A stretch of 64,000 bases of DNA, taken from positions 7,668-71,667 of the forward strand of contig CAZRTH010000002.1 in the NCBI GenBank assembly GCA_964602975.1, given 5' to 3'. The position numbers and the translations under genes are program-made. Positions 1,604 through 64,000 of the stretch are shown in pieces (the first letter of the stretch is position 1; every line of letters starts with the position of its first letter). The notes beneath the pieces were generated by a model. That model worked only from the letters and a program-made list of their open reading frames with translations, had not been told where the DNA came from and did no database searches. Source of the stretch: an uncultured Candidatus Saccharibacteria bacterium (GTDB taxonomy: Bacteria > Patescibacteriota > Minisyncoccia > Phycocordibacterales > JBBTRF01).

Positions 1604-4402
1604 ATGAACACTGGTCCCGAAGCGTTACATACTCCTGAACAGGAATTGGCTTTTCTGCGCGAGCAAGTGTCGAAGAAGGAGCGCGAGCTGCGCGAGCGCG
1701 GAGAACCGCAGCCCCTGCAAGAGCGCGTGATGAAGGAGAAGTTGGTCGAATATCAGGGGCTTCCGACAGAGAAAGTGCTCACGAAAGAGCGTCAATTGGC
1801 TCCGCAAGCAGCGGAGGCGATCGTTCTAAACATTGCTCCGGAGGCACACGATGAAAAAATGGCCGAATTATTGGCAGTGCTTCAGAAGCATGGCTTGAAG
1901 AACGCGTTGGATATTGTTGAGCGACTCAAGAGCCCTCACATCGAGGATGACTTCCACCGTTTTATTATCCAATATCTCAAGGCCGGTCATCGAGTGGATC
2001 AAATGAATCCAAAAGAGGCGATCTCCAAGGCGCTGAAGATGACTTTGTATGAGATCTCGCTGCCTGAGCGAGACGGGCAAGCTCCGGAAAAGCCTCTCAA
2101 GGAGCTCGTGTCTTCCATGGAGCAGCTGTACTCCGGTATGTCTTCTGTTTCCGACGACGATCCTGAGTCGGCTCACTACTTCACTATCGAACTTGCGGTG
2201 TCGAATTTTAGTGACGAATTTGTTTTCTACATGGCTGTGCCGGACACCAAACGAGACCTTTTCGAGAAGCAGGTGCTCGCTATTTTTCATAATGCTCGGA
2301 TCACCGAGAAGCACGACGACTACAACATCTTTTCCGAAAAAGGCGTGGTTGCCGGCTCGGCGGTTGGCTTAATGAAAAAGGCGGCGCTGCCGATCAAAAT
2401 GTATGACCAATTCGACCATGACCCGCTCAACGTCATCCTGAACACTTTCTCGAAGATCAAGCGCGATGGGGAGGGGGCAGCACTGCAGATCGTCTGTAAG
2501 CCGACAAGGAGTGAACTATATTTAAAGCGATACAAGAAGGCAATTGAGCGTATTCAAAAAGGCGTGAAGCCGAGCGATGCGATCGACTTTCCAGACACTT
2601 TTTTTGAGCACTTCACGCATGTGTTCAAGTCTTCGAAGAATCCAAAGAAGCCGAGAAAAGACGAGCCGAAAGAGCCGGAGCATGTGGACGAGACAGCTAT
2701 CGAACAGATCCAGCGCAAGATCGATAGCCCTATTATGCTCGCGAATATTCGCTTGATGGTATCAGCGGATACTGATGTTGCAGCGGATCGGATATTGTCC
2801 GACATGGAATCGGCTTTCAATCAATTTCAAAACACTAATGGCAACCGTTTCGTGTTCGATCGGCTAAAGAAGGGGCAGTTGCAGAAATTCGTGGATCATT
2901 TTGCTTTCCGCCTGTACGACGAAGATATGCAGATGCCGCTGAGCTTGCGCGAGCTCACTACCGTGATGCATTTGCCGGCCACCGTTCTTCGTTCTGCGCC
3001 GCAACTCAAGATCTCAAAGGCGGGTACGGCTCCGGCTCCGCTCGATCTGCCACGGCAGGGTATTTTGCTCGGTATGAACGAATTCCGCAATATGAAAACG
3101 GAGATCCATATGACTCCCGAAGACCGCCTCCGCCATTTCTACGTGATCGGCCAGACCGGTACCGGAAAGACGAGTTTGTTGAAGAATATGATCGTGCAAG
3201 ATATTCAAAACGGCGACGGCGTCTGTTTCATCGACCCGCACGGCAGCGATATTCAGGACATTTTGTCGAAGGTTCCGAAGGAGCGCTACGAGGATGTCAT
3301 CTATTTCGACCCTGCGTACACCGAGCGGCCGATGGGGTTGAACATGCTCCAATACGATCCACGGTTCCCAGAGCAGAAGACCTTCGTGGTGAACGAAATG
3401 CTCTCTATTTTCAACAAACTTTTCGACATGAAGACGGCTGGTGGTCCGATGTTCGAGCAGTATTTCCGCAATGCGGTGCTTTTGACGATCGATGATCCTT
3501 CTTCTGGTGGTACGCTGTTGGATGTGTCGCGCGTGCTGTCGTCGAAGCTGTTCCGTGAGCAGAAATTGGCGAAGTGTACCAATCCGGTGGTGATCCAATT
3601 CTGGAAGGAGGTAGCAGAGAAGGCAGGTGGGGAATCGTCTTTGGCGAATATTGTGCCGTATGTAGTGAGCAAATTTGATACGTTCTTGAGCAACGACATC
3701 ATGCGGCCAGTGATCGCACAGGAGAAGTCCACTTTCAATTTCCGCGAGATTATGGATACGAAGAAGATCTTGTTGGTGAATTTGTCGAAGGGACGTCTCG
3801 GCGATATCAATGCCAATTTGATCGGTCTTATTTTGGTTGGCAAGATTTTGATGGCGGCGTTGTCGCGTGCCGATTCGCTCAATGGTGCGAGCGCGCTCGG
3901 CGGGGGAGCGGCGGGCATTGCTGGCAGTGCCGCAGTGTCAAAAATGCCACCGTTCTATCTGTACATCGACGAATTTCAGAATGTCACCACAGATTCGATC
4001 TCGGTCATTTTGTCGGAAGCGAGAAAGTACAAGCTCAGTTTGAATATCGCACACCAATTCATCGCCCAGCTGCAAGAGGGGATCAAAAACTCCGTGTTCG
4101 GCAACGTTGGTTCGATCGCCGCTTTCCGTGTGGGTGCCGAGGATGCGGAATATTTAGAGAAGCAGTTTGCGCCGGTGTTTACCGCCAAGGACAGTATGAA
4201 TGTCGACAATTACAACGCATACGTGAAGCTGTTGGCGGCCGGCCGGCCGGTGAAGCCGTTCAGCATGCACCTCGTGCCGCCAACGGCCGGCCGGCCGGAC
4301 CAAGTCGAGAACCTCAAGCAATTGTCGTATATGAAATTCGGCAGGAACAAAGCGGACGTCGAAGCGGAGATCTTGCTCAAGTATCAGAAAAAGAACGCCT
4401 AA
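1604..4402 (+). CDS. TraD/VirD4/TrwB-like (type IV coupling protein-like) P-loop ATPase with long N-terminal extension
   Basis: C-terminal half has Walker A 'VIGQTGTGKTSLLKNM' followed by 'CFIDPHGS' (matches TrwB/TraD 'GATGTGKS...IVDPNG' pattern) and Walker B-like 'LYIDEFQN' plus 'NIAHQF'; no N-terminal TM segment seen. Confidence 0.6.
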   Translation: MNTGPEALHTPEQELAFLREQVSKKERELRERGEPQPLQERVMKEKLVEYQGLPTEKVLTKERQLAPQAAEAIVLNIAPEAHDEKMAELLAVLQKHGLKNALDIVERLKSPHIEDDFHRFIIQYLKAGHRVDQMNPKEAISKALKMTLYEISLPERDGQAPEKPLKELVSSMEQLYSGMSSVSDDDPESAHYFTIELAVSNFSDEFVFYMAVPDTKRDLFEKQVLAIFHNARITEKHDDYNIFSEKGVVAGSAVGLMKKAALPIKMYDQFDHDPLNVILNTFSKIKRDGEGAALQIVCKPTRSELYLKRYKKAIERIQKGVKPSDAIDFPDTFFEHFTHVFKSSKNPKKPRKDEPKEPEHVDETAIEQIQRKIDSPIMLANIRLMVSADTDVAADRILSDMESAFNQFQNTNGNRFVFDRLKKGQLQKFVDHFAFRLYDEDMQMPLSLRELTTVMHLPATVLRSAPQLKISKAGTAPAPLDLPRQGILLGMNEFRNMKTEIHMTPEDRLRHFYVIGQTGTGKTSLLKNMIVQDIQNGDGVCFIDPHGSDIQDILSKVPKERYEDVIYFDPAYTERPMGLNMLQYDPRFPEQKTFVVNEMLSIFNKLFDMKTAGGPMFEQYFRNAVLLTIDDPSSGGTLLDVSRVLSSKLFREQKLAKCTNPVVIQFWKEVAEKAGGESSLANIVPYVVSKFDTFLSNDIMRPVIAQEKSTFNFREIMDTKKILLVNLSKGRLGDINANLIGLILVGKILMAALSRADSLNGASALGGGAAGIAGSAAVSKMPPFYLYIDEFQNVTTDSISVILSEARKYKLSLNIAHQFIAQLQEGIKNSVFGNVGSIAAFRVGAEDAEYLEKQFAPVFTAKDSMNVDNYNAYVKLLAAGRPVKPFSMHLVPPTAGRPDQVENLKQLSYMKFGRNKADVEAEILLKYQKKNA

Positions 4403-21968: not shown

Positions 21969-22189
21969 AAGAAAGAGCTTTCGGTGAGGGTGAGGCTCGC
22001 GTATCGAGCCGCTGTATCCAAGGTACAGTTTAAATGGGAGGGAGTCAATTGTTGGTGAGTAATTGGTCACAGATAATTTCCTCGCCGACGCTCGGAAATT
22101 TCCGCGACCCCGCCTCGCGGTTCGGCCTGCTGTCCTCACATCCGCTCCGGCTTTCAATTCCTGCCTCCATACTTCCAAACAAAAGAAAA

Positions 22190-22208
22190 AACACTCACGA
22201 AGAGTGTT
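22190..22208. terminator. bidirectional hairpin terminator downstream of ssrA 3' end
   Basis: 'ACACTC-ACGAA-GAGTGT' stem-loop flanked by A-run (22181-22190) and T-run (22208-22216). Confidence 0.45.
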
Positions 22209-22221
22209 TTTTCTTTTGTTG

Positions 22222-22613
22222 TGGAGATGGGAGGAATTGAACCCCCGTGCAGAAGAGTCTAGTGAATGGGTCTACGAAGGGTAGGGCGCTTCTATGTCTG
22301 CGGGGCAGACAATTCGCGCGAGCCGTTATGAAACGACCGAAAAGCGGCTCGCGCTATTCCCATGATTTCGAATCGGCGGCGGGACTCCGCTGATCCCATT
22401 CCACAAATATAGCGTCAGGACCGAACGGTGTGGAAACCATCCGGCTGGCGTCGCTTAGGCTTTCGCGTAAGCGAATGCAAGGTCAGCCGCACCGAAGTAC
22501 GGAGACTTTACAGATCCAAGTTTTGCACTTAGAATTTCCAGCCTTTTTAAGAGTTACTGGAGCTCTCCTTCGCACATTCAAGAGATATTCTTCCGTCGAT
22601 GCCTGGCATCCCC
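22222..22613 (-). ncRNA. ssrA: tmRNA (SsrA, transfer-messenger RNA)
   Basis: Minus-strand 5' end 'GGGGATGCCAGGCATCGACGG' mirrors E. coli 'GGGGCUGAUUCUGGAUUCGACGGG'; 3' end '...GGGGGTTCAATTCCTCCCATCTCCA' is a T-arm plus acceptor strand complementary to the 5' GGGGATG; adjacent to smpB; 'UAAAAAGGCUGG...AAGU-GCA' context resembles E. coli resume-codon context; CCA not encoded. Confidence 0.7.
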
Positions 22614-26699: not shown

Positions 26700-26775
26700 G
26701 CGCCCGTAGCTCAGTTGGTAGAGCAGGTGTCTTATACACACCTGGCCGGGGGTTCGAATCCCTCCGGGCGCACCA
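26700..26775 (+). tRNA. tRNA-Ile (anticodon UAU, decodes AUA), CCA encoded
   Basis: Cloverleaf: acceptor GCGCCCG/CGGGCGC, D-arm GCTC-AGTTGGTA-GAGC, anticodon stem GGTGT/ACACC with loop C-T-TAT-A-C, T-arm GGGGG-TTCGAAT-CCCTC, ACCA end. Confidence 0.7.
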
Positions 26776-42463: not shown

Positions 42464-43666
42464 ATGATCTTCAACTACACTACAATCGACCAAGCAGGGG
42501 CAAAGACCCAGGGAACCATCGACGCTGTGAGCGTGGATGTGGCGATCAGCTCTTTGCAGCGCCGCGGACTCACTATCGTCACGATCAAGGCGGAGCAAAA
42601 AGGCTCCGCGCTGGAAAAACTCTCCTTCTTCGGTCGGATCACCAACAAAGATGTGGTCATCTTGTCACGTCAGATGTCCACCTTGTTCTCAGCACAGATC
42701 TCCGCTCTGCGCGTCTTCCGCCTACTCGGATCGGAAACCGAAAAGCCGCAGCTGCGTGCAGTGTTGAACACAGTGGGCGACGATCTCCAAGGAGGCATGC
42801 TCATTTCCAAGGCTCTCTCAAAGCATCCGGAAGCATTTTCCGACTTCTATGTGAACATGGTGCGTTCCGGCGAGGAATCCGGCAAGCTCGACCAGATCCT
42901 GCTCTATTTGGCAGATTATCTCGACCGATCTTTCGAGGTGACCTCGAAAGCGAAGAACGCTCTCATTTATCCGATCTTCGTGATCGCTACTTTTATAGTG
43001 GTGATGACCCTGATGCTCACTATGGTGATCCCAAATATCAGCAGTATTTTGGAAGAATCAGGCCAGGCGATACCGATCTACACGAAGATCGTGCTGGGGA
43101 TAAGCCACATCGCTGTCGGATATGGTATTTACGTCTTCCTGGCGCTGGTGATTGGCGGTTTCTTTCTCTATCGTTTTGCCCGCACAGCCGATGGTGGTAT
43201 GGCGTTGAACCGTTTCCAGATCTCCTTGCCATATATCGGCACGCTCTACAAAAAGCTCTACCTTTCGCGTATTGCGGACAACATGAACACAATGCTTTTG
43301 AGCGCGATTCCGATCGTGAAGGCCCTAGAGGTGACTGGTTCGGTGGTGGGAAGCGCGGTATATCGCTCGGTACTCGGCAAGATCCTCGAAGAAGTGAAGA
43401 CGGGTAGCTCTTTGGCCGAGGCTTTTGGCCGATACTCGGAGATTCCGACTATCATGGTGCAAATGGTGAAAGTAGGCGAAGAAACGGGCGAATTAGGCAA
43501 TATTTTGCAGAATCTTTCGAAGTTTTACAGCCGAGAGGTGACCAACGCGGTGGACACTTTGGTGGGTTTGATCGAGCCGGCGATGATCGTCACTCTCGGT
43601 ATCGGCGTGGCTATCTTGCTCGCTTCCGTGCTTATTCCGATCTACAACATCTCCGCGGGGGCTTAA
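42464..43666 (+). CDS. pilC: type IV pilus platform protein PilC (GspF family)
   Basis: Two repeated GspF-domain halves, three TM segments, 'LSSGLSLAEAF'-type motif 'GSSLAEAFGRY'. Confidence 0.8.
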   Translation: MIFNYTTIDQAGAKTQGTIDAVSVDVAISSLQRRGLTIVTIKAEQKGSALEKLSFFGRITNKDVVILSRQMSTLFSAQISALRVFRLLGSETEKPQLRAVLNTVGDDLQGGMLISKALSKHPEAFSDFYVNMVRSGEESGKLDQILLYLADYLDRSFEVTSKAKNALIYPIFVIATFIVVMTLMLTMVIPNISSILEESGQAIPIYTKIVLGISHIAVGYGIYVFLALVIGGFFLYRFARTADGGMALNRFQISLPYIGTLYKKLYLSRIADNMNTMLLSAIPIVKALEVTGSVVGSAVYRSVLGKILEEVKTGSSLAEAFGRYSEIPTIMVQMVKVGEETGELGNILQNLSKFYSREVTNAVDTLVGLIEPAMIVTLGIGVAILLASVLIPIYNISAGA

Positions 43667-43862
43667 AAGGCGACAAGGGAAGGCCCGCGCCGTACGGCGC
43701 GGGCCTTTTGTTATCCACAGCCTTATTTCCACGGCCAAATATCAGGAGTATAATAGGAAGCAAGGTTTGTATACGACCTTCTGCAACGAAGGCGGTCGAG
43801 GGGAAAACCGGAAATATTCATTCAATTACATTATCAAACATTAGAATTTAATCGATTTATAT

Positions 43863-44291
43863 ATGAAACATTCACGAGGTTTTACACTCATCGAATTGTT
43901 GGTAGTGATCGCGATCATCGGTATCTTGTCTTCAGTCGTATTGGCAAGCTTGAATAGCGCTCGAAGCAAGGGTGCTGACGCGAACATCAAGTCAAACTTG
44001 AACAATCTTCGAACTCAGGCCGCCCTCTATTACGATACGAACAACCATTACGGTTTGTCTACTGGATCGACCACAGACACCACTGTTTGCGCAACAGGCC
44101 TTTTTGCTGATCCTACCGTTAGTCAGATGATTACTTCGATCAAGTCAAATGGTGTTGCATTGAGCTGCGTCAGTGGACAATACGGATACGTGATCTCTTC
44201 AGCTCTTAAGAGCGGAGGAAATTGGTGTGTTGACTATACAGGTAGCGCTACGAGCACTACAGCAAACCTTGCGCAAGGCAAGTGTAGCTAG
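43863..44291 (+). CDS. type IV major pilin (prepilin, N-methylation motif)
   Basis: 'MKHSRGFTLIELLVVIAIIGILSSVVLASLNSARSKG' class III signal; Cys pair near C-terminus. Confidence 0.75.
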   Translation: MKHSRGFTLIELLVVIAIIGILSSVVLASLNSARSKGADANIKSNLNNLRTQAALYYDTNNHYGLSTGSTTDTTVCATGLFADPTVSQMITSIKSNGVALSCVSGQYGYVISSALKSGGNWCVDYTGSATSTTANLAQGKCS

Positions 44292-44415
44292 TCTTTTGGG
44301 GCGATAGTTCCATAAGCTCGACAGAGAGCAAAAAATCCCCCTTAAGGGGATTTTTTGCTCTAGTATTATCTAAGAGGGAGTGTATAATATCCTCATATCA
44401 TACTTAGTATTCATT

Positions 44416-44889
44416 ATGAAGACGAAATACAAAAAAAATAAGGGTTTTACATTGATGGAATTGTTGGTAGTGATCGCGATCATCGGACTGCTGATTAGTA
44501 TCGTCACGGTAAGCATCCGATCGAGCCGATCAAAGGGTACGGATACCGGAGTAAAGCGAGGCTTATCCGAGCTCCAGAAGCAGGCAGAGATCTATTACTA
44601 CGAGAATAGCAACTCCTATTCAGGACTCTGTGCTACTAATAAGGTTCAGACACAGTTGGCGAATACTGCCAAGTCTTCAGGCATCACCACTGTAAATGGT
44701 AACGGCGTTGCAGGGGCATGGAATCAAGCAACTTGTCACGACAGCGTACGAGAGTGGGCTGCAGAGGTTCCTATGGCGGATTCTGTATCCGATAATGAAA
44801 TTGCGATGTGGTGCGTTGATGGCGCCGGCAAAGCAGAGAAGACTACCACGGTGTTTGTGGAAGATACTATTGTTTGCCCAACTATATAA
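44416..44889 (+). CDS. type IV pilin paralog 2
   Basis: 'MKTKYKKNKGFTLMELLVVIAIIGLLISIVTVSIRSSRSKG'; start at internal Met preferred over ORF-track start. Confidence 0.7.
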   Translation: MKTKYKKNKGFTLMELLVVIAIIGLLISIVTVSIRSSRSKGTDTGVKRGLSELQKQAEIYYYENSNSYSGLCATNKVQTQLANTAKSSGITTVNGNGVAGAWNQATCHDSVREWAAEVPMADSVSDNEIAMWCVDGAGKAEKTTTVFVEDTIVCPTI

Positions 44890-45398
44890 TGAAGACTTTT
44901 TTCCTCAAATCGAGTCGCAAAGGATTCACTCTTATAGAATTGTTGGTAGTGATCGCGATCATCGGCTTGCTTTCATCCGTAGTGTTGAGCAGTCTTAATA
45001 CCGCTCGATCAAAGGGGAGGGACGCTCGGCGAATTTCCGATGTAAAACAGATACAGCTCGCTCTCGAATTGTATGCGGATCAGAATCTTGGCAGGTATCC
45101 GCAGACGTTGTGTACGGGAACTACCGGTTGCATTGCTCCAACTTACATTTCGACGCTTCCTACCGATCCAAGCACCGGTGCAAATTATGCTTACGCCGCT
45201 CTCGGATCTCTGACAGCTTGTACCGGCTATCATATTGGGACGGCGCTTGAGCTGAACAACCCAGTATTGGGCGGCGACGCGGATGCGGTTTCTACGACTG
45301 GTATTTGCAGCGGTAGCAACGCAAACTTCGCTGGTGACTCAGAAGCATGCACGACTACTTCAGGTACTGAAAAGTGTTTCGATGTAGTAAATCAATAA
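44889..45398 (+). CDS. type IV pilin paralog 3
   Basis: 'MKTFFLKSSRKGFTLIELLVVIAIIGLLSSVVLSSLNTARSKG'; ATG shares a base with preceding TAA. Confidence 0.7.
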   Translation: MKTFFLKSSRKGFTLIELLVVIAIIGLLSSVVLSSLNTARSKGRDARRISDVKQIQLALELYADQNLGRYPQTLCTGTTGCIAPTYISTLPTDPSTGANYAYAALGSLTACTGYHIGTALELNNPVLGGDADAVSTTGICSGSNANFAGDSEACTTTSGTEKCFDVVNQ

Positions 45399-45399
45399 G

Positions 45400-46230
45400 A
45401 TGCCGGCGGACGCTTTCTCTATTGCCGCCGTATTCGTGCTCGGTACATTGATCGGCAGCTTTTTGAATGTTGTCGTGCTGAGATACAACACCGGCCGCCT
45501 CAAGCAAGCGCTTTTGGGAGGTGGCCGGTCCGCTTGTTTTTCCTGCGACAAGCCGCTAGCTTGGTACGAGCTCATTCCGATCCTAAGCTTTTTGGCTCAA
45601 GGCGGACGCTGTCGCAGCTGCAAGAGTCGCCTGTCTTGGCAGTATCCGATCGTCGAGCTGTTGAGCGGCGCGCTTTTTGTGATCGCTTTTTTGCACGAGA
45701 CGGCACCCGCGCCGCTCCTGCTGTCGCTCGTCTCCTTGTCTCTCTTGGTGGTGATCGGCGCGTATGATCTGCGACACAAGATCATTCCCGACGGGCTCGT
45801 GTACGCTTTTGCCGCGATATCGCTCGTGTACGCTTTTCTTCTCTTGCCCTCATTCATGCCTGTGGCCTTCTTTTCGGCCGCCTGGCCTGTGCTCGCTGCC
45901 GGTCCACTCCTCGCGCTGCCGTTCTGTCTCCTGTGGAAGTTCTCAAAAGGCCGCTGGATCGGCTTGGGCGATGGCAAGCTCGCTTTGGGCATGGGCTGGT
46001 TTTTGGGGCTGGCGGGTGGCATTTCGGCCGTCGTACTGGCCTTTTGGGTAGGGGCGGTGGTGGCGATAGCGATACTTGTCATTCAGCGTTGTTGCCCGAG
46101 CCTCGGCACGCGTTGGCACATGAAGAGTGAGATCCCATTCGCCCCATTTCTCATCCTCGCTACGGTCATCGTGTATGCGACAGGGGTGATGCCGACCGGT
46201 ATTGTCCTCTTTGTCCAGAACCTCTTTTGA
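45400..46230 (+). CDS. pilD: prepilin peptidase PilD (peptidase A24)
   Basis: N-terminal zinc-ribbon 'CFSCDKPL...CRSCKSRL', multiple TM helices, catalytic Asp in 'YDLRHKIIPDG' and 'GLGDGKLALG'. Confidence 0.75.
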   Translation: MPADAFSIAAVFVLGTLIGSFLNVVVLRYNTGRLKQALLGGGRSACFSCDKPLAWYELIPILSFLAQGGRCRSCKSRLSWQYPIVELLSGALFVIAFLHETAPAPLLLSLVSLSLLVVIGAYDLRHKIIPDGLVYAFAAISLVYAFLLLPSFMPVAFFSAAWPVLAAGPLLALPFCLLWKFSKGRWIGLGDGKLALGMGWFLGLAGGISAVVLAFWVGAVVAIAILVIQRCCPSLGTRWHMKSEIPFAPFLILATVIVYATGVMPTGIVLFVQNLF

Positions 46231-48093: not shown

Positions 48094-50780
<2,687 letters not shown>

Positions 50781-50808
50781 GGCGGGGTTGTCGGCAGTGT
50801 TTTTTGAC

Positions 50809-50863
50809 TACCCGCGGATTTTGCATACGAAAGTATGAAGAAAGTATGCAAAATCCGCGGGTA
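50809..50863. repeat. REP-like palindromic element, copy 1 (19-bp perfect inverted repeat with 17-nt loop)
   Basis: 'TACCCGCGGATTTTGCATA-cgaaagtatgaagaaag-TATGCAAAATCCGCGGGTA'; second copy at 63441..63495. Confidence 0.6.
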
Positions 50864-50904
50864 CTTATTTTTGTCGAGGCATACCGTCGCTCTTTCCTTC
50901 AGTG

Positions 50905-50948
50905 TTCGAAAAAATAAATAAAAAGCACCGCATCCGTGGTGGATGCGG
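50905..50948 (-). terminator. rho-independent terminator for minus-strand small gene
   Basis: Stem 'CCGCATCC-gtggt-GGATGCGG' followed (on minus strand) by T-run complementary to 50905-50924 A-run. Confidence 0.5.
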
Positions 50949-50975: not shown

Positions 50976-51215
50976 TCAGGCTTCCGTCTCGACGATGTCA
51001 TCGAACAGGTGAGCGATTGAGCCAAAGCCAGCCGAACCGGAGTCCTGCCAGGTGAGCCCCTCCTCTTCATGCGGACTCTCGGGCAGCGTTGATGTCTCCA
51101 CGGTCACGAACGTGAGGAGGAGAAAGGTGGCAACCTTCCAGTTCCGACGCGCTTTCTTGGTGTGACCCTTGTATTCGGCTTCTGTGGCGTGGGCGATGTG
51201 CTTTCCAGGACCCAT
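50976..51215 (-). CDS. small hypothetical protein (79 aa)
   Basis: Isolated minus-strand ORF with its own strong downstream terminator; hydrophobic central segment 'VATFLLLTFVTV'. Confidence 0.4.
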   Translation of the reverse strand: MGPGKHIAHATEAEYKGHTKKARRNWKVATFLLLTFVTVETSTLPESPHEEEGLTWQDSGSAGFGSIAHLFDDIVETEA

Positions 51216-58561: not shown

Positions 58562-59031
58562 TCGCATTTCCCGACCATTTGTTGCATTTCGCTCCGCACC
58601 GTACTATAGTGTTTCCGGCTGGTCAGTGTAGTGCAGAAAGACACGGGGCGTTCTTGGCTCCTCCGTCTCGGGCGCGATCGCTAATTTCATAGTTCGCGTG
58701 AGAGACAAGTTCACCATGTTGCGAGCCGCTCGCAAAAGCGAGTGCAGGCGACTGTCCTCAAAGGGTGGGAACATTCCGCACCTTGCGGTCGGCCGATCTG
58801 CGGCGTGCCTTCTCGCTTGCAGTCAATACCCCTCCGGCCACTGTTCCTGTTCCGCCTGCCGCCCCGTGTCGCCTTTTCGCCGTCCTTTGCAGGGCTGTTT
58901 GCCTCCGAGTCGTTCCTCCGGAAAGTTCGTCCATTCCGGTAGGAGACGGAGCGCCAGCAGCTTTCATTGGGCGGCGTTTTCTTTTGCATTATCTTTTGTA
59001 CAAAGGGACCGGAATCGGTATACTGTGACGC

Positions 59032-59958
59032 ATGGACGCTCAGGATCAAAAGGCCCAAAAATCTAAAGCCGAGGCACGTATCGCCGAGATCGAAGCGGCG
59101 ATGCTCGAGGCCGATTTTTGGGCTGACAAAACAAAAGCTCAAGCGCTAATGAAGGAGCTCGGCGAACTGAAAGAGGAGCTAAAAAGCGGTGGTCCTGGGG
59201 GCAAATCCAACCAAGGCAATGCGATCATCACTATTTTCTCTGGGGCCGGTGGAGACGATGCCGAAGATTTTTCCGCCATGCTCTTCCGAATGTATCGAAA
59301 GTATGTTGAAGCGAACGGTTGGTCGCTAAGCGTGCTCGATGACAACGAAAACAGTCATGGTGGCTACCGAAACATCACTTTTGAGATAACAGGCAAGCCG
59401 ATCGCTGGCAGTGGTCCGTATGGGATGCTTAAAAATGAGTCGGGAGTGCATCGTTTGGTGCGATTATCACCGTTCAATTCGAAGCAGTTGCGGCAAACCT
59501 CTTTTTCAATGGTGGAGGCAGTGCCGAAATTTGAGAAGTCCGCCGGCGCGGGTGTCGATATTCCGGAGAGCGACTTGGAGATCACCACCGCCCGGGCCGG
59601 AGGCCCGGGCGGGCAGAATGTGAACCGCCGTGAAACGGCGGTTCGTATCGTCCACAAGCCGACAGGACTCTCGGTCAATGTATCGAGCGAACGTTCGCAG
59701 CACCAAAATCGCGAAAAAGGATTGGAAATTCTCAAAGGAAAACTATACAAGCGCACGGAGGAAGAGCGCAAAGCAAAGGAGCGTGGAATGGCGATCTCCA
59801 AGACCACCAGCATCGAATGGGGGAATCAGATCCGCTCATATGTGTTGCATCCGTACAAAATGGTGAAGGATCATCGTACCGATATCGAGTCGAGCAACCC
59901 CGATGCGGTGCTCGAAGGCGGTCTGGAAAAATTCATCGAAGCGGAGCGTTTGTTGTAG
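59032..59958 (+). CDS. prfB: peptide chain release factor 2 (short form, no programmed frameshift evident)
   Basis: 'SPF' tripeptide ('[12 protein letters not shown]'), 'GGQ' motif ('[22 protein letters not shown]'), C-terminal '[12 protein letters not shown]'; N-terminal domain ~55 aa shorter than E. coli RF2. Confidence 0.8.
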
Positions 59959-61639: not shown

Positions 61640-63403
61640 ATGGACACCCCGAACGCTCAGAAACATCCAAAACGAAAGAATCCAAAGTATGTGTTCGTCA
61701 TCGGCGGCGTGATGTCAGGCGTCGGCAAGGGCATCGCCTCCTCATCTATCGGAACCCTTCTTCAAGCGAAGGGTTTTTCCGTCAATTTGATGAAGGTGGA
61801 CCCGTATCTCAACGTGGATGCCGGCACGATGAATCCGACCGAGCATGGGGAAGTGTTCGTTCTTGATAGCGGTCTTGAGACCGATCAGGACATGGGCAAC
61901 TACGAACGTTTTTTGAATCGCAGCATGACGCATGACGACTACCTCACGAGCGGCATGATCTACAAGCACGTCATCGACAAGGAGCGTAATCTTGGCTATC
62001 GCGGCCGCTGCGTGGAAGCGATCCCGGATATTCGCGATGAGATTGTTCACCGATTTCGCCGTGCGGCTGAGAAGAGCGGGGCAGAGGTGTCGGTTGTCGA
62101 GATCGGCGGTACTGTCGGCGACTACCAGAACATCATGTTCATCGAAGCGGCCCGCGTTTTGAAGATCAAGCATCCGGAAGACGTGGCTTTCGTGATGGTG
62201 AGCTACCTGCCGATCCCGGGCAAGCTTGGGGAGATGAAGTCGCGTCCGACACAGAATGCGATCCGTCAGCTCCAGTCGTACGGCGTGCAAACCGACATCA
62301 TCATCGGTCGCAGCGAAGTGCCGATCGACAAAAAGCGAAAGGAGAAGATCGCGATCTCTTGCAATGTGCCGGCGGAAAATGTCATCTCCGCTCCGGACAT
62401 TGAAAGCATCTACGATGTGCCGCTCAACTTCGAGCGCGACAAGCTCAGTAAAGTATTGCTCAAGGTCTTGCACGCTCGGCCGAAGGTGAAGGAGGACGGT
62501 CTCGGCAAGTGGCGAGCATTCGTGCATAGCATTAAGACTGCCAACGAGGAGGCGAAAGGCGGTGCGGGCGGGAAGCCTGGCGCGAACGTCGTGAACATCG
62601 CTATCGTCGGAAAATATTTCAATACAGGTGATTTCGTTCTCACCGACTCATATGTGTCGGTGCTCGAGGCGATCAAATATTCAGCATACAAACTCGGCTT
62701 GAAGCCTGTGATCCACACGGTGAACGCGCTGGATTTTGAAAAGAAAAAGCCCAACTTCAAAGTGTTGCAGAAGTTTGACGGTATCTTGGTGCCCGGCGGC
62801 TTTGGTGAGACGGGTATCGAGGGCAAGCTCGCGGTGATCCGTTATGCCCGAGAGCATCAGATTCCATACTTCGGTCTCTGCTACGGCATGCAGCTTCTGG
62901 TGATTGAGTACGCTCGCAATGTGATGGGTTGGAAGGATGCCAACACTGCCGAGATCGATCCTGCTGCCTCAAAGGTGGTGATCGACATCATGCCCGATCA
63001 GAAGAAGAAACTCGCGGAGGGCCAGTATGGCGCTTCGATGCGTCTCGGTGCCTATGAAGCGCACCTGAAGAAAGGGACGATCGCTCGCGAGGCGTATGGT
63101 ACTGATATTGTTTCCGAACGACATCGACATCGATATGAGGTGAACCCGGTGCATATTCCGGATCTGGTGACGGGAGTCATTGGGCAGGGCAAGGGCGAGG
63201 GTTCACATGTCGGTCTCGTGTTTTCCGGCACTTCACCTGACGGCAGCTTGATGGAGATCGCTGAATTGCCTCGCGAAACGCACCCATTCTTTCTTGGCGC
63301 ACAATTTCATCCTGAGTTTCTCGCGCGACCGCTTTCACCGCACCCATTGTTCACCGAATTTTTGAAGGCAGCTGGAGGCGCGGAGAAGAGGAAGGGGAAG
63401 TAA
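61640..63403 (+). CDS. pyrG: CTP synthase
   Basis: 'KYVFVIGGVMSGVGKGIASSSIG' N-terminal synthetase P-loop-like, glutaminase triad region 'GLCYGMQL' (Cys), 'HRHRYEVN' (His). Confidence 0.9.
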   Translation: MDTPNAQKHPKRKNPKYVFVIGGVMSGVGKGIASSSIGTLLQAKGFSVNLMKVDPYLNVDAGTMNPTEHGEVFVLDSGLETDQDMGNYERFLNRSMTHDDYLTSGMIYKHVIDKERNLGYRGRCVEAIPDIRDEIVHRFRRAAEKSGAEVSVVEIGGTVGDYQNIMFIEAARVLKIKHPEDVAFVMVSYLPIPGKLGEMKSRPTQNAIRQLQSYGVQTDIIIGRSEVPIDKKRKEKIAISCNVPAENVISAPDIESIYDVPLNFERDKLSKVLLKVLHARPKVKEDGLGKWRAFVHSIKTANEEAKGGAGGKPGANVVNIAIVGKYFNTGDFVLTDSYVSVLEAIKYSAYKLGLKPVIHTVNALDFEKKKPNFKVLQKFDGILVPGGFGETGIEGKLAVIRYAREHQIPYFGLCYGMQLLVIEYARNVMGWKDANTAEIDPAASKVVIDIMPDQKKKLAEGQYGASMRLGAYEAHLKKGTIAREAYGTDIVSERHRHRYEVNPVHIPDLVTGVIGQGKGEGSHVGLVFSGTSPDGSLMEIAELPRETHPFFLGAQFHPEFLARPLSPHPLFTEFLKAAGGAEKRKGK

Positions 63404-63440
63404 TGAGGGAAGTGGCAGGGTGTCCGCCGATGTTTTCACC

Positions 63441-63495
63441 TACCCGCGGATTTTTCATACGAAAGTATGAAGAAAGTATGAAAAATCCGCGGGTA
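63441..63495. repeat. REP-like palindromic element, copy 2
   Basis: 'TACCCGCGGATTTTTCATA-cgaaagtatgaagaaag-TATGAAAAATCCGCGGGTA'; differs from copy 1 by a G->T change in the 5' arm matched by C->A in the 3' arm. Confidence 0.6.
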
Positions 63496-63590
63496 CTCAA
63501 AAGCACTCGGCACCTGCTCCTCCCGCCACATTCGCTTTACATGTAGCGCATGGATGTGATAAGACTACTGGAGAAAGGAGGAAGTTGTCA

Positions 63591-64000
63591 TATGGGTAAA
63601 AAACGTCCCACATATCACGTCCACGGTCTTCGACTGTCCAAGTTGCTCACTGAATACAAAGGCTCAAGAGAGGAACTCGATCTCATTGCGAAGGAATACT
63701 TTCCGATGGTTCACAACATAGCTCACGACCTGTGCGGGCAATGGCAAGCCGCGCTCGGCGGTACAGCCGATGAGGGTGACCTGTTTTCAGTAGGCTGTAT
63801 TGCTCTCTATGAGTCGCTTCTTCTGCACTCCGGAGAAAGAGGGGTGTTACAGTCGTGGATCGCCAAACGTGTCAGGTGTGCCATGATCGACGAATGCCGC
63901 CGGACGGATCCTTTGCCTAGATCTATGAGAAGTAAGCTCGGTAAATCCGGCGAGGCACCACCCGTCGTTCCGAGTCACTCAAATCCCGCGATCAAGACCA
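63591..64000 (+). CDS. sigma-70 family sigma factor (3' partial, runs off window)
   Basis: 'DLFSVGCIALYESL...WIAKRVRCAMIDECRR' resembles sigma-70 region 2.1-2.4 (cf. FliA 'DLIQEGNIGLM...WIRQAI'); ATG at 63591 preceded by AGGAGG. Confidence 0.4.

Follow-up and report, generated by a model that had tools for sequence, protein, structure and literature searches.

Two genes in the stretch of DNA analysed here (64 kb, hereafter the window) are followed by copies of the same 55-bp palindrome, which raises the question of what such a sequence is and does. It could act in the transcript, as a terminator or a stabiliser of the mRNA 3' end; it could be a site recognised by a protein; it could belong to a dispersed family of DNA repeats; or it could be a local duplication of no significance.

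Two copies of a perfect hairpin

Both copies were located exactly where a sequence-only reading of the window had placed them, at 50809–50863 (copy 1) and 63441–63495 (copy 2), and neither hairpin is assigned to a strand. The arms of copy 1 (50809–50828 and 50844–50863) form 20 perfect base pairs around a 15-nt loop (50829–50843, GAAAGTATGAAGAAA), while those of copy 2 run from 63441 to 63460 and from 63476 to 63495 around a loop at 63461–63475. The inverted repeat is as perfect as had been described, but its stem had been given as 19 bp and its loop as 17 nt; with C50828 and G50844 also paired, the figures become 20 bp and 15 nt. Within the hairpin the copies differ only at the pair already noted, in which the change from G50823 to T63455 is compensated by that from C50849 to A63481. 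The nested CATAC-GAAA-GTATG mini-hairpin and the direct repeat that had been reported are likewise both present. The opening bases of the 3' arm recur in the loop, and this duplication of the arm's top is what makes the loop asymmetric. In copy 2 the duplication is perfect, with two tandem 11-nt units of GAAAGTATGAA (63461–63482), and taking away one GAAAGTATGAA unit would leave a perfect hairpin with a GAAA tetraloop.

Under a covariance model the hairpins scored 83.2 bits (copy 1) and 80.3 bits (copy 2), and the sequence of copy 2 is identical in an independent Logan assembly (L052). A 53-nt degenerate pattern matched only 50810–50862 and 63442–63494 in the window (expected number 0.00, from 100 shuffles), and no third copy was found there by mismatch patterns, an nhmmer profile or the covariance model. 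The hairpin is predicted to be very stable both as RNA (−43 to −48 kcal/mol, z −6.4 to −8.3, in 100-nt contexts) and as DNA (−22 to −23 kcal/mol, z about −10).

The repeated unit extends beyond these 55 bp, a feature missed earlier: about 28 nt more are repeated upstream, comprising a G-rich box (G-box) and a T-run. Copies 1 and 2 together form an 80-nt repeat of 86% identity, and their downstream likeness ends after 3 nt.

Flanks and neighbouring genes in the window

Copy 1 lies downstream of ligA (NAD-dependent DNA ligase, 48585–50780, plus strand; Pfam domains DNA_ligase_aden, OB, HHH and BRCT). Its G-box (GGGCGGGGTTGTCGGCAGTG, 50780–50799, plus strand), the first base of which is the last base of the ligA stop codon, is conserved in copy 2 and on the left of 10 further copies (consensus GGGGTGTCCGYCAGTG). 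Next come a left T-run, TTTTTT, and a GAC linker (50800–50808, plus strand), and on the far side of the hairpin a CTTA linker and a right T-run, TTTTT (50864–50872, plus strand), which on the ligA sense strand give a terminator-like stem and U-tract. A terminator scan that takes only loops of 3–8 nt and tails 0–2 bases after the stem gave no call here. The same kind of scan placed an intrinsic terminator at 50928–50948 (minus strand) for the facing 79-aa gene (50976–51215, minus strand; a 78-aa orthologue occurs in relative L030), and since that gene converges on ligA and has a terminator of its own, copy 1 lies between convergent genes. Between the stop codon of ligA and this terminator there is no other hairpin, and copy 1 is followed by CUUAUUUUUG.

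Copy 2 lies downstream of pyrG (CTP synthase, 61640–63403, plus strand; Pfam CTP_synth_N and GATase; identical protein P0241). Its G-box (GGCAGGGTGTCCGCCGATG), T-run TTTT and CACC linker occupy 63414–63440 (plus strand), with GGTGTCCGCCGATGTTTTC at 63419–63437, and the box starts 11 nt past the stop codon (63401–63403). On the other side, a CTC linker leads to an A-run, AAAA, and an inverted G-box-like sequence, GCACTCGGCACCTGC (63496–63517, plus strand). Copy 2 is an extended palindrome of about 105 nt, in the predicted RNA fold of which GCCGAUGUUUU pairs with AAAAGCACUCGGC, and it has a U-tract on neither strand; its T,A flank architecture is shared by one other copy (L010). Downstream is a sigma-70-like gene (63592–64000, plus strand; Sigma70_r2 and r4 domains), which in L052 encodes 265 aa (2512–3309). 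No counterpart of this gene was found after pyrG in four related lineages, nor in the related sequences examined; the four relatives have at that position a gene of 155–181 aa with no assigned function or a LAGLIDADG-like gene (L050), so that the junction downstream of pyrG is a variable spot. A consensus scan found no promoter in or beside the element, and no promoter-like site ahead of the sigma-like gene.

Several other features of the window were recorded in passing. A type IV pilus cluster (42464–46230) contains, by position and translation, a PilC-like gene (42464–43666) and a prepilin-peptidase-like gene (45400–46230), together with three tandem pilin paralogues with GFTLIELLVVIAIIG N-termini (43863–44291, 44380–44889 and 44874–45398), and these tandem genes account for the direct-repeat family D1 of the window. 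ARAGORN identified a tRNA-Ile with anticodon UAU at 26700–26775, an anticodon that bacteria do not commonly use for AUA codons. A 33-nt inverted repeat with 82% complementarity at 22164–22234 reaches into the 3' end of the tmRNA gene (22219–22613, minus strand) and is probably its terminator. Finally, a release-factor gene (PCRF, RF-1; 58698–59958) is split over overlapping reading frames at 58698–59066 and 59032–59958, and no canonical CUU UGA frameshift motif was seen at the overlap.

Copies in related genomes

The sequence-only reading had named a REP/MITE family as one possibility, and this part of it was supported: at least 11 further distinct copies occur in related groundwater and lake genomes, bringing the total to at least 13, which speaks for a repeated family and against a chance duplication. 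These copies come from one scan of species-representative genomes and one of metagenome contigs, and the pattern-based counts are lower bounds. Metagenome-assembled genome ELA631 gave at least three pattern matches (L003a, L003b and L010). Copies L022, L023, L024, L025 and L027 are on Hainich groundwater contigs, with at least two on a 680-kb and at least two on a 100-kb contig (at least four in about 780 kb). Lake metagenomes contributed L019/L020 and L021, and a variant copy (L037 = L038 = L043) was reached by following homologues of the L25 gene. Outside the window the copies occupy eight other loci in at least three related lineages and three unplaced metagenome contigs, and all 13 distinct copies are intergenic singletons. 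The best matches of proteins in the window are to Patescibacteria, Paceibacterota or Kaiserbacteria, those of proteins next to the copies are to Patescibacteria or Paceibacterota, and the host, to judge from its sequence, is a CPR bacterium with a small genome, Paceibacteria-like.

Other collections yielded little. Rfam searches at gathering and E-value thresholds returned only tmRNA, tRNAs and sub-threshold miRNA or unrelated matches far below gathering scores; no phage, plasmid or IMG/VR match to the element was found, and the literature searched described no REP-like or MITE-like repeats in Patescibacteria. Searches by tblastn of about 385 kb with IS200 TnpA, IS608 TnpA and E. coli RAYT, which are approximate queries, gave nothing better than E = 0.2, and no recombinase or transposase was found adjoining any copy.

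The scans also returned sequences L001, L002, L004–L009, L011–L016, L018 and L026/L028/L029, which were set aside as unrelated palindromes that share only the end words searched for. L017 (1–59), by contrast, is a variant copy of the element with a longer stem and a 9-nt loop (GCATACCAAA-AGTATGCAG-TTTGGTATGC), found upstream of a UvrA-like gene on a 1-kb contig that was binned as 'Proteobacteria' and is likely mis-binned CPR DNA.

Anatomy and covariation of the element

Across copies the unit is about 100 nt long and consists of G-box, T-run, a 2–4 nt linker, a 20–23 bp stem with a 13–15 nt loop, a second linker and a second run. All 12 aligned copies have the T4–6 run and the 2–4 nt linker (mostly GAG) on the G-box side. 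When the copies are read in the orientation of the G-box, the 3' linker is mostly CTC and leads to a second T-run in 10 of the 12; copy 2 and L010 have an A-run and an inverted G-box in its place, the whole element there being a palindrome of about 105 nt. Two further ideas about these flanks were tried and dropped. The G-box is neither an independent motif nor one half of a pre-existing terminator, as it occurs only together with the hairpin and nothing upstream is complementary to it, and a pseudoknot between loop A-runs and flanking T-runs finds the required complementarity in only about two-thirds of the copies.

The inner 13 bp of the stem (GGATTTTKCATAC, with arms GGATTTTTCATAC and GTATGAAAAATCC) are invariant or compensated, and both these arms and the GTATGA core of the loop show conservation of sequence beyond what pairing asks. 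The outer 7-mers fall into types: TACCCGC/GCGGGTA in the window, a type that ELA631 shares apart from single-base variants; GCAGGTGC/GCACCTGC in L037; and a Hainich type, TAGGTGC/GCACCTA, which is exact in L023, has one mismatch in L021 and is recombined or replaced in the rest. Two copies are arm chimeras of these types (L025, TAGGTGC...GCGGGTA; L022, TACCTTC...GCACCTA), which suggests exchange between copies, and in L024 and L027 the 3' arm GCAGGTG fails to pair with TAGGTGC.

The compensated difference between the two window copies is one instance of strong covariation throughout the family. Double compensatory changes were found at 10 of 23 pairs among the 13 distinct copies, 91.3% of the cells of this alignment (13 copies, 23 pairs) are standard pairs, none of 500 shuffles reached any observed covariation measure, and sliding the partner columns lowers pairing to 30–50%. 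Pairing over the inner 13 bp is 100% Watson-Crick in all 13 copies, with G-U pairs absent and three positions compensated, a figure biased by the search patterns, which fixed most bases of the inner stem. A fair test is offered by the free K/M position (paired in 13 of 13), by the outer stem and by L037, a copy that was reached through orthology and adds two compensated changes. It had been argued from the compensation that the hairpin is selected as an RNA or cruciform structure. To infer an RNA hairpin from it is unsafe here, because template switching can restore either arm of a DNA palindrome to match the other.

Gain, loss and clustering by genome

Presence of the element varies among close relatives. 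Synteny between the Hainich 680-kb contig and the window is 75–78%; on this contig the ligA and pyrG sites are empty, and copies lie after grpE and between secY and adk. Downstream of pyrG the site is empty in the four related lineages that cover it (the Hainich relative and three more), and downstream of ligA in the sole related lineage that does; that relative carries an extra 302-aa gene where copy 1 lies. Upstream of fba, ELA631 has the element where Hain214 and L036 do not. Mismatch patterns, the nhmmer profile and the covariance model all failed to detect a copy at the empty sites of the relatives.

The exact ends of an insertion were sought by comparing filled with empty sites, and this approach was abandoned, as the genes of the relatives are about 75–88% identical and the intergenic DNA is unalignable; with no clean alignment of a filled and an empty site, the ends given for the element are approximate and any target-site duplication is conjectural. 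T4–6 runs occur on both sides in 10 of 12 copies and T...A in two, which is low-complexity sequence and only suggestive of such a duplication. At the fba site, ELA631 and Hain214 differ by a 270-nt block that also holds a 38-aa reading frame. This frame (MIFKERTSNLLVKILSKITKENLHEPIDFGSPVGKEFW; L003 1110–1240, ELA631) has a TGTATAAT box of its own, lies just downstream of the element and is absent from the Hainich pfkB|fba spacer.

Hairpins are 91–98% identical within the window/ELA631 lineage and 85–98% within Hainich. On the other hand, the ELA631 copy between the L25 and SLT genes (L25|SLT) is only 76% identical to its orthologue in Hain214 and 65% to that in L037. The copies group by genome and not by locus, a pattern that points to concerted evolution or repeated re-insertion.

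An orthologous site filled in three lineages

The L25|SLT site is filled in three lineages (ELA631, Hain214 and L037), and its flanks face the same way in each; synteny between ELA631 and the Hainich 100-kb contig is 81–88%. The three stems all differ, at up to seven positions per arm, and all are perfectly paired. In ELA631 the asymmetric loop is inverted while the flanks are fixed, and this inversion at an orthologous site means that DNA-level events of the template-switch kind do happen in the element. The distance to the downstream TATAAT varies from about 44 to 55 nt. More distant relatives, with L25 64–76% identical, have only a plain terminator and a promoter at this site, and in Hain214 a separate canonical terminator stands ahead of the element. 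The element is far better conserved than the intergenic DNA around it, which could instead reflect a host function under purifying selection.

Two observations were made at this junction. First, contigs end inside or just before the hairpin (L039, which stops in the loop at 1691, and L036, L040 and L041), and the palindrome or repeat probably breaks short-read assemblies. Second, an unrelated inverted repeat of about 105 nt directly follows the L25 stop codon at L003 4036–4140 (ELA631), L043 1270–1380 and L039 1500–1610, with the form GAAA(A/T)ACAAAACA..ATTTTGGAGGA ... TCCTCCAAAAT..TGTTTTGT.TTTC; its Hainich-214 orthologue is a plain terminator. This repeat may be another palindromic insertion family in the clade.

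A probable dispersed DNA palindrome of REP/MITE type

We consider it probable, with moderate confidence, that the element is a low-copy, lineage-restricted, REP/MITE-like family of dispersed DNA palindromes in a narrow clade of Patescibacteria. The comparisons above establish its turnover, its independence of orientation, the inversion of its loop in place, its homogenisation within genomes and its strict retention of a Watson-Crick palindrome while the stem sequence changes. The element would spread and be homogenised at the level of DNA, either through a putative trans-acting enzyme or through recombination and gene conversion among copies. Its arms may be kept perfect by arm-to-arm template switching (which would also invert the loops), by selection for the ability to form a hairpin or cruciform, or by the two together, and its effect on transcripts would depend on orientation. 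We infer that the family behaves like selfish or semi-domesticated DNA of the REP/MITE type. Several points count against such a reading: the copy number is very low for a mobile repeat, no transposase was found in the approximately 385 kb searched with approximate queries, no filled site could be cleanly aligned with an empty one, and the L25|SLT copy is much better conserved than its surroundings. The reading also leaves the asymmetric G-box and T-run flanks without explanation.

Transcript-level and protein-site alternatives

An RNA-level cis element, in which the hairpin is selected in the transcript as an intrinsic terminator or a 3'-end mRNA stabiliser, is the alternative that survives best, and we regard it as unlikely though not negligible. 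It would fit the great stability of the RNA hairpin, the abundance of compensatory changes, the start of both window copies less than 40 nt from a stop codon and the persistence of the L25|SLT copy while its neighbourhood diverged, as well as the three copies (copy 1, L021 and L022) that have a stem and U-tract on the sense strand. The orientation of the copies argues otherwise. Relative to transcription the loop is forward about as often as it is reversed, and among the nine assignable sites the flanking runs on the sense strand are T,T in three, A,A in four and T,A in two, so that loop and T-run are randomly oriented with respect to the sense strand. The genomic contexts are mixed too: seven are tandem (pyrG|sigma, L25|SLT, dnaK|dnaJ, secY|adk, PLD|eno, khpA|trmD and downstream of grpE), one is convergent (ligA and the 79-aa gene) and one is divergent (pfkB and fba in ELA631). 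At the last of these no transcript 3' end is expected, because the copy lies between divergent genes, while the copies at secY|adk and dnaK|dnaJ sit within usually co-transcribed pairs in a non-terminator orientation. Nor would a transcript element be expected to invert its loop in place, to have an inner stem free of G-U pairs, to carry a 15-nt loop, atypical of terminators, or to follow a separate canonical terminator, as it does at L25|SLT in Hain214.

A strand-specific role as terminator or mRNA stabiliser, which the sequence-only reading had put forward for both copies, thus lacks support as a general rule, given the mixed orientation, the divergent copy and the inner stem without G-U pairs. 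The terminator layout itself stands for the copy after ligA, with its U-tract, but not for the copy after pyrG, which has no U-tract and in which an A-run follows the stem. Copy 1 plausibly ends ligA transcription or protects the 3' end of the transcript, whereas the copies lacking a sense-strand U-tract (copy 2 and those at secY|adk and dnaK|dnaJ) are probably read through.

Marginally slimmer still are the prospects of a protein-recognised site, in which the arms and the asymmetric loop would be bound by a recombinase or HUH-type enzyme on the extruded hairpin, or by a dimeric DNA-binding factor, and in which the element would at the same time mark the insertion sites of lineage-specific genes. 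Sequence conservation of the inner arms and of the GTATGA loop core is what such binding would predict, and the asymmetry of the loop would supply the strand polarity that hairpin-recognising recombinases need. Copies do lie at lineage-variable junctions, next to the sigma-like gene, the 302-aa gene, the 38-aa reading frame and the LAGLIDADG-like gene of L050, but the same association is expected of any element that is tolerated only in dispensable DNA. Moreover, no copy has an adjoining recombinase or transposase, the element has neither the R-box consensus of attC nor the GT[AG]G motif of REPs, and the variable distance to downstream promoters speaks against an operator. A more specific form of the idea, which we rate as a long shot, is that the hairpin is the recognition or junction site of a Patescibacteria recombination system acting on single-stranded or cruciform DNA, with the loop setting polarity. 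If true, genes peculiar to one lineage (the sigma-like gene downstream of pyrG and the small reading frame upstream of fba) would be moved or captured by this system, which would explain both the placement at variable junctions and the loop flips.

A coincidental local duplication, with neither family nor function, has practically no chance of being correct, for although the 64-kb window holds only two copies, it is refuted by the copies with covarying stems at eight other loci and by a chance expectation of 0.00.

Comparison with known palindromic elements

The dispersed-palindrome reading invites comparison with known systems. Like the REP/BIME sequences of Enterobacteria and Pseudomonas, the element is a short intergenic palindrome dispersed within and between operons, in either orientation, and able to form stable hairpins in transcripts. 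REPs also come in types particular to a species, even where the site is orthologous, and the clustering by genome seen here agrees with this. There are also differences. REP palindromes are imperfect and about 20–40 nt long, whereas the stem here is perfect over 20–23 bp; the REP 5' GT[AG]G is absent, the feet of the stem being TACCCGC, TAGGTGC or GCAGGTGC, preceded by GAG, GAC or similar; and REPs number tens to hundreds per genome, in doublets or BIME clusters, while this element occurs as a few singletons per genome and has in addition the asymmetric flank of G-box and T-run. In REPIN–RAYT systems the genome carries a RAYT gene (a Y1 HUH transposase), usually with REPs on either side of it, in contrast to the lack of a match in the approximately 385 kb searched here with approximate queries.

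MITEs such as the Correia elements of Neisseria, the pneumococcal RUP and BOX and the SMAG of Stenotrophomonas are similar in being non-coding, about 100 nt long and built on inverted repeats, and in varying in presence between related genomes, as at the ligA, pyrG and fba sites; orientation-dependent side effects on transcription, for example terminator activity, are plausible in both. However, the core of this element is one hairpin, not two terminal repeats around a spacer, and no cognate insertion sequence is known.

Loops that flip between perfect arms, and arms that change together, recall hairpin-loop inversion and the template-switch correction of quasipalindromes. Hairpin-forming palindromes are known to behave in this way at the DNA level, both in the non-coding DNA of chloroplasts and in mutation studies of E. 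coli. These processes are general mutation and not an element family, and are invoked here only for the perfection of the palindrome.

Rho-independent terminators share with copy 1, L021 and L022 the stem followed by a U-tract. They differ from the element in its loop of 13–15 nt, its stem of 20 bp or more and its upstream T-run in place of an A-run, and most copies are in the wrong orientation or lack a U-tract; copy 1 fits in part. Integron attC sites are imperfect hairpins with R''/R' boxes (RYYYAAC ... GTTRRRY) and extrahelical bases; the ends of the element, by contrast, are off the R-box consensus and its stems are perfect.

This is thus a previously undescribed small family of a familiar kind of element, and involves no new mechanism. 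The accepted view of how REP/MITE-type elements work is unchanged by it, and only its asymmetric flanks and its association with variable junctions might lead somewhere new. For assembly the element is a practical warning, as contigs end in or beside the hairpin (L039, for example). The genomes of Patescibacteria (CPR) are very small and gene-dense, and in this uncultured group the family offers a marker for genome dynamics.
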